In this document: positions 56,363 to 62,529 of the stretch, piece by piece
Position numbering within the stretch: position 1 is the stretch's first letter
How the letters are laid out: each line of letters opens with the position of its first letter
From: Brevundimonas sp.
GTDB taxonomy: Bacteria; Pseudomonadota; Alphaproteobacteria; Caulobacterales; Caulobacteraceae
Reading direction: 5' to 3'
NCBI RefSeq assembly: GCF_035627055.1
Contig: NZ_DASPMM010000009.1
Location: 22,334-86,333, forward strand
Length of the DNA: 64,000 nt
Made by a program: the position numbers and the translations under genes
Notes under the pieces: generated by a model
Databases searched by the model: none
What the model was told of the DNA's origin: nothing
What the model saw: only the letters and a program-made list of their open reading frames with translations

Positions 56363-56845
56363 TCAGGTCCCGCTGCGTTCAGGATAGAAGACGCCCTGGA
56401 CGCGGCCGCCCTCGCCGGCGCCGTCCATCTGGGCGGACTCGGTGCGGGTGTTGTAGGTCAGGCGGCCGCCGGTCATGACGTTCTCGCCCTGGGTCAGGAT
56501 CACGTCGCCGGTCAGCACGATGGTGTCGTTGGCCGGGGTGTAGACGGCGCGGTCGCCGCGGATGGTCTGGTCGGGGGTGACGAAATAGACGTTGCCGGTC
56601 GCCTCGACGCGGCTGAGGCCGCCGTTGGCGATCACGCCCTCGACGCGGTCGGCGCGGATGCGGTTGTCGCCCTGGGTCAGCTCGGCGCGTCCCCGCAGGG
56701 ACAGGGCGGTGGGGGTGCGCGACACCTCATCGGCGCCCCACATGATCGGCTGTCCGCTCTGGAAGCTCTGCGCGCCGCCGATGCCGGGCAGCGCCATGAG
56801 GGCCAGGGCGATCGCCGCCGTCGTCAGGGTTCTGGTCATGCTCAT
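56363..56845 (-). CDS. lptA: LptA/OstA family periplasmic LPS transport protein
   Basis: Signal peptide; AELTQG..IRAD, EATGNV, GDRAVY, LTGDVILTQGENV, RVQGVFYP; position in the lpt operon. Confidence 0.88.
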   Translation of the reverse strand: MSMTRTLTTAAIALALMALPGIGGAQSFQSGQPIMWGADEVSRTPTALSLRGRAELTQGDNRIRADRVEGVIANGGLSRVEATGNVYFVTPDQTIRGDRAVYTPANDTIVLTGDVILTQGENVMTGGRLTYNTRTESAQMDGAGEGGRVQGVFYPERSGT

Positions 56846-57498
56846 CCGTCCGACCTCGCGGCGTTGATGGTCCCGCGCACCTTGTTATCACCCGAGCCGC
56901 TGAACACGACCCGTTCGCCCTGTTCATAGATCGCATAGGACGAAGCGGTGACGGTTCCAAGGGGGCCGGAGCCCTGGACGCCCTTCGAGCCGGTCACGAT
57001 GCCGGTCGAGGTGTTCACCACCGCCTCGGGCGTGACGAGGGTGAAACCCGAACCGCCGTCCGAGATTCGCACGTTCGGACCGATGGTCACGGTCTTCGCA
57101 GCCTCGTCGTAGACGCCGCCGTCGGCGGTCAGGGTGGTGACCTTGCGGCCGCCGAGATTGAGCCGCAGGGCGGGGCCGACCAGACGGAAGCGGCCGGTTT
57201 CGGCGTCGCGCACGGCGCGCTCGAAGCCGACCACGAAGCTGCGGCCCTGGGCGTCCTGGCCGAGGAAGCGGGATTTCTCGAGGGTGACCTCCCGGCTCGC
57301 CCCGGCCTTGCGCTCGACGTCCGAGATGACGCTGCGCAACACGATCCAGCTGATCGTGCCGCCGGCCAGGACGATGATGGCGACCGGCAGGATTCGGCGC
57401 AGCAGCTGCACGCGGCGGGAGCGGGCGCGGAACGCCTTCGCCGTGGCGGCGATGCGGGCCTCGTCCGCCTGGTCGCGCGTGTCGCCCGGTTCGGTCAT
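56842..57498 (-). CDS. lptC: LptC-like LPS export protein
   Basis: RSRRVQLLRRILP + TM helix + beta-jellyroll-like region; upstream of lptA. Confidence 0.85.
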   Translation of the reverse strand: MTEPGDTRDQADEARIAATAKAFRARSRRVQLLRRILPVAIIVLAGGTISWIVLRSVISDVERKAGASREVTLEKSRFLGQDAQGRSFVVGFERAVRDAETGRFRLVGPALRLNLGGRKVTTLTADGGVYDEAAKTVTIGPNVRISDGGSGFTLVTPEAVVNTSTGIVTGSKGVQGSGPLGTVTASSYAIYEQGERVVFSGSGDNKVRGTINAARSDG

Positions 57499-58112
57499 CA
57501 GCTGTGCGCGAAGATGTCCATCTCGTCCCAGCCGGCGAGGTCCAGCGCGGACCGCGAAGGCAGGAAGTCGAAGCATTTGCGGGCCAGTTCGGCGCGGCCC
57601 TCTCGCTCGAGCATCTCGTCGAGGCGGGCCTTCACCGCGTGCAGGTAGAGGACGTCGGAGGCGGCGTACTCCAGCTGGGCGGGGGTCAGGGTCTCCGCGC
57701 CCCAGTCCGAGCTCTGCTGGGCCTTGGACAGGTCGACTCCCGCCAGTTCGCGCACGACGTCCTTCAGGCCGTGGCGGTCGGTGTAGGTGCGGGCCAACTT
57801 CGAGGCGATCTTGGTGCAGTAGACCGGGCGGGTCTCGACGCCGAGGTGGAGCTGGAACATGCCGATGTCGAAGCGGCCGAAGTGGAACAGCTTCAGCACC
57901 GCCGGATCGGTCAGCAGCCGCTTCAGATTGGGGCAGTCGTAGCCGGGGCGGCGCATGCGCACGACGTGGGCGTCGCCGTCGCCAGCGGAGAGCTGCACCA
58001 CGCACAGCGGGTCGCGGCGGAAGCGCAGGCCCATGGTCTCGGAATCGATCGCGACCTCCGGGCCCAGGTCGAGGCCGTTGGGCAGGTCGCCTTCGTGCAG
58101 GAATACGGTCAT
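57498..58112 (-). CDS. rnd: Ribonuclease D-like 3'-5' exonuclease
   Basis: AIDSETMGL, LCVVQLS, KLFHFGRFD, CTKIASKLARTYTDRHGL, QSSDWG, YAASDV. Confidence 0.93.
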   Translation of the reverse strand: MTVFLHEGDLPNGLDLGPEVAIDSETMGLRFRRDPLCVVQLSAGDGDAHVVRMRRPGYDCPNLKRLLTDPAVLKLFHFGRFDIGMFQLHLGVETRPVYCTKIASKLARTYTDRHGLKDVVRELAGVDLSKAQQSSDWGAETLTPAQLEYAASDVLYLHAVKARLDEMLEREGRAELARKCFDFLPSRSALDLAGWDEMDIFAHS

Positions 58113-59441: not shown

Positions 59442-60251
59442 TCAGGCGTACAGCCACATCCCCAGCAGGCCGACGAACCCGACCAGGATGCGCCATCCGG
59501 CGAAGGGGGCGAAGCCGTAGCGGCCGACGAAGTCGATCAGGAAGCGGACGATGAACAGTCCGCTGACGAAGGAGACGACGAAGCCGATGGCGATGACGCC
59601 GGCGACGTCGGCGGTGATCAGGTCGCGGCTTTCCCAGAAGTCGAGGCCGAAGGCGGCGACCATGGTCGGGATGGCGAGGAAGAAGGAGAATTCCGCCGCC
59701 GCCCGCTTCTCGACGCCCAGCAGCAAGCCGCCGACGATGGTGGCGCCGCTGCGCGACACGCCCGGGATGATCGACAGGCACTGGAACAGGCCGACGCCCA
59801 GGGCGGTCTTCCACGAGAATTTCATCGCGTCGTGCTCGCGCGGGACCGGGGCCCAGCGCTCCAGCGCGATCAGGGCGAAGCCGCCGACGATCAGGGTGAT
59901 GCAGACGATGGTGGTGTTGAACAACACCTCCTTGATGAAGTCGTGGAACAGAAGGCCGACGATGGCCGACGGGATGAAGGCCAGCAGCACCGACAGGGCG
60001 AACATCCGCGCCGCCGGGTCCTTGCCCGGCAGTCCGAGCAGGACCTTCCAGAGACGCTGGAAATAGAGGGCGACCACGGCGAGGATGGCGCCCAGCTGGA
60101 TCATGACGATGAAGGTATCCCACGGCTCGTCGCCGAGCCCGAGCGCCTGTTTGGCCAGCAGCAGGTGGCCAGTGGAGGAGACCGGAATGAACTCGGTCAG
60201 ACCCTCGACCAGGCCAAGAATGATCGCCGCCAGCCAGTCCGCCATCCGCAT
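59442..60251 (-). CDS. uppP: Undecaprenyl-diphosphatase
   Basis: GLVEGLTEFIPVSSTGH, IQLGAILAV, PGVSRSGATI, AAEFSFFLAIPT. Confidence 0.97.
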   Translation of the reverse strand: MRMADWLAAIILGLVEGLTEFIPVSSTGHLLLAKQALGLGDEPWDTFIVMIQLGAILAVVALYFQRLWKVLLGLPGKDPAARMFALSVLLAFIPSAIVGLLFHDFIKEVLFNTTIVCITLIVGGFALIALERWAPVPREHDAMKFSWKTALGVGLFQCLSIIPGVSRSGATIVGGLLLGVEKRAAAEFSFFLAIPTMVAAFGLDFWESRDLITADVAGVIAIGFVVSFVSGLFIVRFLIDFVGRYGFAPFAGWRILVGFVGLLGMWLYA

Positions 60252-60272: not shown

Positions 60273-61460
60273 TCAGTTCGCGCCCGGTTCGGGACCCACA
60301 TAGCGCAGGCGCGCCCGGATAGGCGAGCCGTTCGTGATCTGGTCGAGCGCATGGGCCAGCAGTCCTGCCAGGCGACCGATCATCAGAAGGTCGGCGGGCG
60401 CATCGCGCGGGAGCTCGAGCCGGCGGGCGACTGCGACCAGGGCGAGCGTGAAGGCGGGGCGGCGGCCGGTCAGTTCCTCGCCCTCGCGCAGGGCCCTGGC
60501 CAGATCCTGAGGCAGGTCGGCGACGGCGAGAAGGGCGGCGGCGCGCGGATCTCCGCCGGGCCAGGCGGGATCGCCGAACCCGTACAGCGCGCCCGCTTCA
60601 TGAGCGCGCCGCGCCGCATCGGCCGCCTGACGGCGAACCGCGACGACCCAGTCGGACTCCCTGGCCAGGTCGATGAGGGTCGGGGCGCCGGCCACGGTCG
60701 CCAGTCCGGCCAGGGCCGCGCCGGCGAGGGAGGCGCCCCCGGCGGCGGCGGCCCGCGCCGCGAGAGCGGGGGCGTCAAGGCCGCTGTCGGCGGCCAGCAC
60801 CAGGGCGCGACGAACCAGGTGGGCGTCGGGCTCGCGCACCTTCCAGGTCCGCGCCAGCCGCTGATGGAGGAACAGCCGGGGGCCGGGGCCGGCCACGGCG
60901 TCGACGGCCTCGTCGAGGACGCGGGCGCATTCGACGCGCAGGGATTCGGGCGGGCGAGGCTTGAGCTCCGCGTCCTCCTCGGCCCTGCGGGCGAGGGCGG
61001 AGAACAGCCGGCCGCGGGCCGAATGACCGGGCATGGTCCCGACGCGGGGGCGGACCTCGACAAAGGGATTGCCCGCCCGGGCGTCCCACATCCGCCGCGC
61101 CACGTCCTCGAGGGTGGCCGACTCGGCCAGCTGGACCGCGTCCATGCCGCGGTAGAACAGCCTGCGGCCGTCGCTCACCGACACCGACGACCGGATTTCG
61201 AGGTCCTGCGCCTCCGACTCCTCGGGCGGCGGCAGCCACTGGCCGATCCCGGCGGCGGCGGCCGGTTCGTCCCCGCTCAGCCGGATGATGTCGGAGACGG
61301 CGTAGAGGCTGCGGCGGGGATCGTCCGGATCGGGCCGGGCGGCGATGCGGCCGCGGCTGACGTAGGCGTACAGGGTCTGGGCCTTGACCCCCAACCGGGC
61401 CAGAGCCTCGCCGCGTCCGATCCAGCGGCCGGCCTGCGATGCCGTCCCTGCCGACTGCAT
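60273..61460 (-). CDS. HTH (excisionase-like) + citrate-synthase-fold protein, catalytically degenerate
   Basis: EALARLGVKAQTLYAYVSRG HTH; IRSSVS..LFYRGMDA..LA..ATLE, GFG..W..GDPRA, GRLAGLLAHALDQ, IRARLRYVG. Confidence 0.85.
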   Translation of the reverse strand: MQSAGTASQAGRWIGRGEALARLGVKAQTLYAYVSRGRIAARPDPDDPRRSLYAVSDIIRLSGDEPAAAAGIGQWLPPPEESEAQDLEIRSSVSVSDGRRLFYRGMDAVQLAESATLEDVARRMWDARAGNPFVEVRPRVGTMPGHSARGRLFSALARRAEEDAELKPRPPESLRVECARVLDEAVDAVAGPGPRLFLHQRLARTWKVREPDAHLVRRALVLAADSGLDAPALAARAAAAGGASLAGAALAGLATVAGAPTLIDLARESDWVVAVRRQAADAARRAHEAGALYGFGDPAWPGGDPRAAALLAVADLPQDLARALREGEELTGRRPAFTLALVAVARRLELPRDAPADLLMIGRLAGLLAHALDQITNGSPIRARLRYVGPEPGAN

Positions 61461-61590
61461 GTCGCCTCCGAAAGGCCTGACGGACCTCCAAGGGTCCATG
61501 CGGCGCGCAGCATGGGGCCATTTCGTGACGATGCCGCTAACGCCCGCCGGCGCGCTTGGCGCCGCCGACGCTTTCCGCGACAAGACGGCG

Positions 61591-62529
61591 ATGACCACGA
61601 CGCCCCACGACGACGCTCATCTGGCCGCCCGCAGCGTGACGCGCCTGTCGGTCGGCGTGGCCGTGGTGCTGATCGCGCTGAAGGCCTTCGCCCTCGGCGC
61701 CTCCGGTTCGGTGGCCATGCTCGCTTCCCTGACCGATTCGGCGCTGGACCTGGTGGCGTCGCTGGCCACCTTCTTCGCCGTGCGCTGGGCCGCCGCCCCG
61801 CCGGACGCCGAGCACCGCTACGGCCACGGAAAGGGCGAGGCGATGGCGGCGCTGGTGCAGGCCGGCCTGATCTTCGCCTCGGCCGTGTTCATCGGCTGGG
61901 AGGCGGTGCAGCGCATCTTCGATCCGCGTCCGGTGAGCTCGGGCTACTGGGCGGTCATGGTCGTCCTGATCTCGATCGCCCTGACCGGCTGGCTGGTCTG
62001 GATGCAGGACCGGGCCATCCGCCGCAGCGGCTCGATGGCGGTCAAGGCGGACCGCGCCCACTACGCCGCCGACATGGCCGCCGGCGCGGTGGTGCTGATC
62101 GGGGTGGTGTCCGGGACCTTCCTGGCCGCGCCGGGTCTGGACGCGGCGGCCGGGCTGATCGTCGCCGTCTGGCTGTTCTGGGGCGCGCTCGGCCTGCTCA
62201 GGGAGGCGGCCGACCACCTGCTGGACCGCGCCGTCCCGGACGCCGACCGGATCGCCATCACCACCGCCGTGCTGGTCGATCCGCGCATCACCGGGGTGCA
62301 CCAGCTGCGCAGCCGCATGGCCGGGTCAGTGATGATGATCCAGATGCACGTCGACCTTGAGCCGAGCCTGACGCTGGAACAGGCCCACGCCATCGTGGTC
62401 GGGGCGGAGCAGCGGATCCTCGAGGCCTATCCCCGCGCCGACATCCTGATCCATCCCGATCCGAGAGGGGCGGCGCCGGCGACCTCCGTCCCCGTTTCAG
62501 GGCCCGAGGACGCGCCGGCGGCTCCATAG
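61591..62529 (+). CDS. Cation diffusion facilitator (FieF-like)
   Basis: SGSVAMLASLTDSALD, PPDAEHRYGHGKGEA, ADRAHYAAD, HQLRSR, IQMHVD, IHPDP. Confidence 0.93.
   Translation: MTTTPHDDAHLAARSVTRLSVGVAVVLIALKAFALGASGSVAMLASLTDSALDLVASLATFFAVRWAAAPPDAEHRYGHGKGEAMAALVQAGLIFASAVFIGWEAVQRIFDPRPVSSGYWAVMVVLISIALTGWLVWMQDRAIRRSGSMAVKADRAHYAADMAAGAVVLIGVVSGTFLAAPGLDAAAGLIVAVWLFWGALGLLREAADHLLDRAVPDADRIAITTAVLVDPRITGVHQLRSRMAGSVMMIQMHVDLEPSLTLEQAHAIVVGAEQRILEAYPRADILIHPDPRGAAPATSVPVSGPEDAPAAP

Follow-up and report, generated by a model that had tools for sequence, protein, structure and literature searches.

A gene of Brevundimonas sp. encodes a protein in which a helix-turn-helix (HTH) domain precedes a citrate synthase (CS) fold with eroded catalytic motifs, which raises the question of what such a protein does and why it is kept. 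The gene lies in a stretch of 64,000 nucleotides (the window; about 70% G+C), and its close matches in a protein search carry the name Brevundimonas. An earlier note on this DNA had proposed a transcription factor that uses the dead fold to sense citrate, oxaloacetate or acyl-CoA, with a link to a divergent metal exporter.

HTH and CS domains of the window protein

The open reading frame at 60273-61460 on the reverse strand begins with an ATG that has GGAGG 4 nt upstream (61465-61469). A longer form from a GTG at 61598 was rejected; it would overlap the start of the divergent cation-efflux (CDF) gene and is without support from orthologues. The gene and its parts are as follows:

60273..61460, reverse strand: citC orthologue, a 395-aa protein of HTH and dead CS fold; stop codon at 60273-60275
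61275..61424, reverse strand: N-terminal MerR-superfamily winged HTH, residues 13-62; motif QTLYAYVSRGRI, DPRRSLY; HTH_17/MerR matches
61191..61274, reverse strand: linker, residues 63-90; pLDDT <65; a neutral/acidic stretch replaces the basic arm (RKARGRK type) of canonical relatives
60276..61190, reverse strand: CS-fold domain, predicted non-catalytic, residues 91-395; from Pfam, alignment, model and dN/dS of 0.12-0.25

The Pfam model Citrate_synt matched residues 192-383 with an E-value of 4.5e-24 (85.6 bits against a cut-off of 27), and the NCBIfam models for citrate synthase, methylcitrate synthase and citryl-CoA lyase all matched far under their cut-offs. A weak Pfam HTH_17/MerR match covered residues 17-58 (HTH_17, E-value 3e-3 at residues 18-58); this similarity is marginal for the window protein, at 18-22 bits against a cut-off of 27. 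Across the HTH-CS family, HTH_17 was matched by 29 of the 29 N-domains tested, the best at 9.8e-10. An AlphaFold model of the full protein, built on 97 relatives (pLDDT 91, pTM 0.80), displays a helix-turn-helix, a beta-hairpin and a helix at residues 16-62, a disordered linker at residues 68-82 and then a helical body. The closest PDB folds in Foldseek were citrate synthases with M. tuberculosis CitA at the top (TM 0.66-0.72), and the best PDB sequence match was the citryl-CoA lyase 6hxp (2e-7). The Pfam and fold matches and the HTH_17 count bear out the earlier reading of an HTH fused to a CS fold.

Modelled alone, the N-domain (pLDDT 90.6) folds like GlnR in complex with DNA (TM 0.73, rmsd 1.8), TnrA (0.71) and BldC (0.66), and also like CarH and SoxR, all of them of the MerR superfamily. 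Searching PDB sequences with a profile of the HTH domain returned noise only, and the placement was made by fold. The N-domain fold is thus common to the window protein, GlnR/TnrA, BldC and the excisionases (HTH_17). In contrast to the small winged-HTH proteins of the MerR superfamily, the window protein has no MerR-type C-terminal antiparallel coiled-coil dimer helix and no effector domain; in the model the HTH leads through the disordered linker into the CS fold. With the PF00285 enzymes (M. tuberculosis CitA, 8gmi; S. typhimurium PrpC, 3o8j; citryl-CoA lyase, 6hxp) it has in common the fold, at the TM values given above, and the Arg residues of DPR, GRxxGxxAH and IRxR, whereas the catalytic His/His/Asp are absent, the large domain has a shorter N-terminal part and a DNA-binding domain is added.

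The columns of the active-site motifs were set by alignment to the genome's own GltA, 16 CitB enzymes and canonical HTH-CS members:

60780..60788, reverse strand: DSG replaces DHE, residues 225-227 (ADHEL to ADSGL); oxaloacetate-binding His lost; alignment
60672..60689, reverse strand: GAPTLI replaces GPLHGG, residues 258-263; catalytic His lost; alignment
60570..60581, reverse strand: GFGD replaces GFGH, residues 294-297; catalytic His to Asp; alignment
60447..60455, reverse strand: AFT replaces NxD, residues 336-338 (PNxDF to PAFTL); catalytic Asp lost; alignment
60543..60545, reverse strand: R306, retained Arg of DPR (R329 in pig CS); invariant in 97 sequences
60372-60374, reverse strand: R363, Arg of GRxxGxxAH, kept; invariant in 97 sequences
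60315-60317, reverse strand: R382, Arg of IRxR, kept; alignment

Each of the four motif changes described in the earlier note falls at its expected column. The catalytic His of GPxHGG, the His of GFGH and the Asp of NxD correspond to Thr, Asp and Thr, and the alignment of orthologues establishes that every catalytic residue is lost in the window protein (state STDT). Judged by these residues, the protein is non-catalytic.

Although the His of DHE has become Ser, all three Arg residues R306, R363 and R382 are kept; they are the counterparts of the Arg residues that bind oxaloacetate/citrate in pig and E. coli CS. The triad reads RRR in nearly all loci, and R306, R363, R236 and R36 are invariant among the 97 sequences. 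The four ex-catalytic positions, on the other hand, are hypervariable among Brevundimonas species (STDT, NADG, HARP, DIAA, CLEH and others). Free variation at these positions, set against selection on fold, HTH and Arg triad, is evidence against a specific ligand recognized through the former catalytic residues. Sensing of citrate, oxaloacetate or acyl-CoA at the dead active site therefore appears doubtful, even with the Arg triad kept; the triad could possibly form a simpler anion site or have a purely structural role.

Orthology with Caulobacter citC and the proposed family operator

In Brevundimonas the locus reads Epim, UppP, HTH-CS <> CDF, GST (<> denotes divergent genes), and in Caulobacter and Phenylobacterium it reads citC <> citB-CDF-GST with Epim/UppP on the other side. 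Several Caulobacter-/Phenylobacterium-type genomes show GST-CDF-citB <> HTH-CS, or citB <> HTH-CS-UppP, Epim, and their citB beside HTH-CS is a complete type-I citrate synthase in divergent orientation. As the order is the same minus citB, the Brevundimonas locus corresponds to the Caulobacter citC locus without citB, and by gene order and alignment the window gene is the positional orthologue of Caulobacter citC. The CS family has exactly three genes in C. vibrioides OR37, and the HTH-CS gene among them is divergent from the CitB type; by this arrangement we identified its HTH-CS gene with CitC (CCNA_03758), next to CitB (CCNA_03757).

Caulobacter CitC resembles the window protein over its full length (42-45% identity), in its locus and in its architecture of HTH and CS fold. 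Unlike the window protein, it keeps DHE, GPxHGG, GFGH and NxD, faces citB and has a site of ~28 bp in front; in the window protein the motifs, the citB partner, the ~28-bp site and the basic arm are all lost. The window's genome contains two CS-family genes only, one of the GltA type and the window gene, and a genome-wide search for citB in this genome and four relatives found none. Within the Caulobacteraceae, a full-length relative including the HTH occurs in 44 of 61 genomes and 20 of 27 genera (one unpublished genome, G025, is counted in; none of the claims depends on it).

E. coli gltA is complemented by CitB and not by CitC, and citC was unable to replace the cell-cycle role of CitA in Caulobacter (Berge et al. 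2020, eLife, PMC7083601). The same paper treats CitC as a putative citrate synthase and has 0 occurrences of 'helix-turn-helix'. We rejected CitC as a plain enzyme paralogue. Our literature searches found no HTH-CS protein treated as a regulator and, in line with what the earlier note had surmised, no published characterisation of the eroded form.

A search of 1.84 billion cluster representatives retrieved 1184 clusters at E<1e-10, most of them aligned from residue ~12 to ~392. The catalytic H/H/H/D is kept in 107 of 130 full-length cluster representatives (82%), so that total loss of the catalytic residues is not a trait of the family. Related loci were retrieved with a 10-row alignment, and the 80 named ones include Bosea, Rhizobium, Devosia, Sphingomonas, Hyphomonas, Rhodoplanes, Burkholderia and Paraburkholderia. 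Among them, most alphaproteobacterial genera (Bosea, Rhizobium, Devosia, Sphingomonas, Hyphomonas) show the divergent citB <> HTH-CS pair. A near-identical element of ~28 bp, with the consensus ATCGTCAATCTTGATCAATATAATCAAT, is positioned 14-34 bp upstream of the HTH-CS start in 34 HHHD loci; start codons in other loci, and hence distances, were assigned by script. From its conservation we infer that this element is the family operator and overlaps the HTH-CS promoter. Gene order and the conserved site suggest that canonical HTH-CS proteins are one-component regulators of citB. The repeated ATCAAT units of the canonical site recall the direct-repeat binding of BldC and Xis.

Several further observations were made in the family. 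Glu occupies the catalytic Asp column in 16 of 16 CitB-type citrate synthases (L015-L017, L041-L050, L053-L055; NVEFY, NVELY, NVEFF), and Caulobacter CitB is nevertheless reported to complement E. coli gltA (PMC7083601). The HTH-CS relatives G027:C16:174579-175745, G046:C5:127079-128245 and G045:C91:9166-10341 (L053-L055) have 1-2 in-frame stops each next to an intact citB, and they may be regulator pseudogenes in two genera. Betaproteobacterial HTH-CS proteins (L107, L112, L118, L125, L133, L135; Burkholderia, Paraburkholderia, Trinickia) keep H/H/H/D; their loci have no citB-like gene within 4 kb and are mostly without an upstream TCAAnnTTGA.

Stepwise loss, selection and the candidate DNA sites of the locus

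A maximum-likelihood tree of 109 proteins has a fully supported (100%) clade of 42 rows, all of them without citB at the locus and none of them HHHD. Most of its basal members (HFHD, SYHD, TYHD, QASD, HSHD, HVHD) still have TCAAnnTTGA, the core palindrome, between citC and CDF. On the Asticcacaulis-like branch (NMAT, NLTT, TLKS) most or all four residues are lost, and the core palindrome is found in 2 of 5 rows. In the Brevundimonas crown (STDT, NADG, HARP, DIAA, CLEH and others), all or nearly all four residues are lost and the operator is absent. Within the clade the catalytic residues erode in the series HHHD > HFHD/SYHD/QASD > STDT. The basic stretch behind the HTH fades in parallel, with a mean K+R over the following 16 residues of 5.0 in canonical members, 2.5 in basal members and 1.4 in the Brevundimonas crown; net charge over the same 16 residues is +3.3 in canonical members versus -1.6 in the crown. 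A separate small clade of the tree without citB keeps HHHD, which indicates that loss of citB alone does not force erosion. Genomes of the degenerate clade are without citB at other loci too. One genome, G010, is an exception in that it combines a degenerate citC at the CDF/UppP locus with a canonical citB-citC pair and its operator elsewhere (loci L026 and L050). In the tree this canonical pair falls among Rhizobium and Devosia sequences, which points to lateral acquisition.

Between Brevundimonas species, the dN/dS of the HTH (0.02-0.20) and of the CS-like domain (0.12-0.25) compares with 0.13-0.27 for CDF and GST, the flanking genes; the linker alone has relaxed, with dN/dS reaching ~1. The number of columns conserved at >=80% is 177 in the Brevundimonas crown versus 175 in the canonical group. 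Conservation was lost at the old active-site motifs (H226, E227, H261, G262, G263, H297, L299, Y300, N336, D338), and the crown gained clade-specific motifs such as GPRLFLHQRLARxWK in the CS body. Twelve positions are conserved in both groups with a different residue in each, for example W367>L. By these measures citC is under purifying selection in both domains and is not decaying; an enzyme fold without catalytic residues that is nevertheless under purifying selection is, on the sequence data, a pseudoenzyme.

The genes and conserved elements around citC are:

61591..62529, forward strand: CDF cation-efflux gene (Cation_efflux and ZT_dimer), divergent, with a 130-bp spacer to citC
59442..60251, reverse strand: uppP/bacA, 21 bp downstream of citC on the same strand; no terminator-like site in the gap
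61512..61541, reverse strand: conserved block GTTAGCGGCATCGTCACGAAATGGCCCCAT, candidate citC promoter and/or new operator; conserved across Brevundimonas loci
61496..61515, no strand: 20-bp near-perfect palindrome, CCATGCGGCG and CGCAGCATGG, in the citC leader; unique in the genome
61555..61584, forward strand: conserved block directly before the CDF start, probable CDF promoter; footprinting

The tight citC-uppP spacing is held across the whole degenerate clade, which makes co-transcription of the two genes probable. Separately, identity of the window uppP to its counterparts in the closest relatives (L057-L059) is no more than 56-65%, where the flanks reach 81-93% (pairwise dN/dS 0.5-0.8), and to those of more distant Brevundimonas (L060-L064) it is 79-87%; the window gene looks like an allele replaced by recombination within the genus. 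Another neighbour, the ORF at 56842-58005 on the reverse strand, carries an LptC-related domain at its C-terminal end (7e-8) and is, at 387 aa, unusually long for LptC.

On the other side, the CDF gene is indeed divergent across the 130-bp spacer, as the earlier note stated. This position lends no support to the citrate/metal control built on it, since CDF adjoins citC because citB was deleted, and the ancestral target of citC was most likely citB. Caulobacter CDF genes, which follow citB, have a conserved upstream element of their own, and this weakens the proposed CDF link. Between the citB stop and the CDF start in L043, L103, L110, L120, L124, L131 and L132 lies the conserved element GAGTCGTTCGCGCTGGGG with a GANTC (CcrM) site, part of the perfect palindrome AACGACTCGCGCGAGTCGTT in L043 and L124; in Caulobacter it could act on the CDF gene as a separate control site or serve as a terminator.

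The canonical operator was searched for in the Brevundimonas genome by several routes. Its position weight matrix reached at best -29 bits in the citC-CDF spacer and 9 bits across the genome, compared with 30-50 bits at real sites, and a genome scan for ATCAA/TTGAT clusters found no 28-bp window with three units. The upstream site TCAATCTTGATCAAT...ATCAAT of the CitC-type family is absent from the window locus. The pattern TCAANNTTGA is absent from the window and has 7 copies in the genome versus about 4 expected by our own estimate from base composition. Two of its copies are intergenic, one before a DUF559 gene and one between convergent PdeA-like and AlgH-like genes; neither was target-like, and both were rejected. 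The sole exact TCAATCTTGA in the genome immediately precedes the GTG start of the DUF559 (Vsr-like endonuclease fold) gene (G000:C25:69769; L137 1970-1979), which is probably a coincidence.

Footprinting of the spacer across 25 Brevundimonas loci brought out two conserved blocks, at 61555-61584 and at 61512-61541. A regulon search with the block at 61512-61541 returned no second copy in the genome, the block being unique to the citC locus. The palindrome at 61496-61515 is shared by the nearest relatives only, and its 9/10 match is reached in 1.3% of shuffles. A scan of the citC-CDF spacer for sigma-70-type promoters gave no match, as expected for such GC content and promoter type. The block at 61512-61541 and the palindrome are the best candidates for a new site. 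The HTH recognition residues of the window protein are identical to those of canonical members, whose site is missing from the genome; DNA binding may therefore be weak, non-specific or lost in practice. With the HTH intact and strongly constrained, DNA binding by the window protein appears plausible.

Competing explanations and significance

We favor, with moderate confidence, an explanation in which the window protein is an orphaned CitC orthologue, a non-catalytic and still DNA-binding regulator that outlived citB and the operator. In canonical members, the HTH-CS regulator, encoded back to back with the minor citrate synthase gene citB, would bind the AT-rich ~28-bp site overlapping its own promoter and use the CS body as a dimerization and sensor module. 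On this reading, citB was deleted from the locus in the ancestor of a Caulobacteraceae clade comprising Brevundimonas, Asticcacaulis and relatives, after which the regulator shed its active-site residues in turn; Brevundimonas has lost the operator and the post-HTH basic arm too. What survives probably still acts on DNA as a dimeric regulator, with a DNA site that has changed or become relaxed, likely directed at its own citC-uppP transcript and/or the adjacent CDF-GST genes, in which the CS body serves as a dimer scaffold and possibly, via the Arg triad, as an anion-binding module. More tentatively, the stepwise losses (HHHD > HFHD > SYHD/QASD > STDT) may have proceeded under selection while the protein was rewired, via the block at 61512-61541, to another DNA site and another regulon, with uppP and/or CDF-GST as possible members, and the canonical family may represent widespread, unstudied citB switches derived from citrate synthase.

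A dead CS fold that senses citrate, oxaloacetate or acyl-CoA in a transcription factor controlling the divergent CDF exporter seems unlikely to us. The three kept Arg, the CDF gene across the 130-bp spacer, the TCAAnnTTGA retained between citC and CDF in basal members of the degenerate clade and the same-strand position of CDF-GST downstream of citB in Caulobacter would all fit it. However, the deletion of citB accounts for the adjacency, the pocket positions vary strongly between species, neither the Brevundimonas spacer nor the genome has the operator any longer, and the Caulobacter CDF genes carry their own upstream element. It is also conceivable, though improbable, that the protein has left DNA and is kept for a catalysis-independent protein-protein or scaffold role like that of a catalytically dead paralogue, a role for which there is precedent in Caulobacter, where catalytically dead CitA still acts in cell-cycle control (PMC7083601). 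The missing canonical site, the lost basic arm and the clade-specific motifs of the CS body, such as the one cited above, would agree with such a role. Against it stand the HTH, which is under stronger constraint than any other part of the protein and shares its invariant residues with operator-bearing relatives, and the failure of citC to replace the cell-cycle role of CitA.

Decay towards a pseudogene after loss of citB is very improbable. Motif erosion is indeed stepwise, the Pfam score drops from ~170 to 69 bits and some relatives (G027, G046, G045) have in-frame stops, but every one of the 42 rows in the degenerate clade has an intact ORF, the neighboring housekeeping genes show the same dN/dS, and the crown has as many conserved columns as the canonical group. 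Least credible of all is an enzyme of the CS superfamily that works with different residues, for example a lyase or a thioesterase. The best PDB sequence match is a citryl-CoA lyase and the Arg triad is kept; yet the acid/base residues are all lost and their positions differ between close species, which no conserved chemistry would allow. In addition, replacement of the GFGH His alone by Ala or Trp in Caulobacter CitA abolishes complementation of E. coli gltA (PMC7083601).

The HTH-CS family is listed in databases, and regulators built on an enzyme fold are already known as a kind. In MocR/GabR (aminotransferase fold), NrtR (Nudix), B. subtilis PurR (phosphoribosyltransferase fold) and the ROK repressors, an HTH is combined with an enzyme-derived sensor or dimer domain; catalytic residues are degenerate in several of these families, and their ligands and operators are known. 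They differ from the window protein in fold and in HTH class. B. subtilis CitR-citA pairs a LysR-type repressor with a divergent minor citrate synthase gene and thus, like canonical citC-citB, sets a dedicated regulator against a minor CS gene; CitR belongs to an unrelated protein family, and the window has no citB. New here are the orthology to citC, the canonical members that keep their catalytic residues beside citB and the site, and the stepwise loss in one clade.

Caulobacter CitC has been published as a citrate synthase paralogue that does not complement; it has a DNA-binding domain, and a conserved site faces citB. This re-reading makes control of citB directly testable in a model organism, where the candidate site is ATCGTCAATCTTGATCAAT...ATCAAT. 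Public records name such proteins 'citrate/2-methylcitrate synthase'; for Brevundimonas the count of citrate synthases should be one instead of two. The Brevundimonas form represents a natural end-point of pseudoenzyme evolution, and the intermediates in sister genera let the order of loss be studied.
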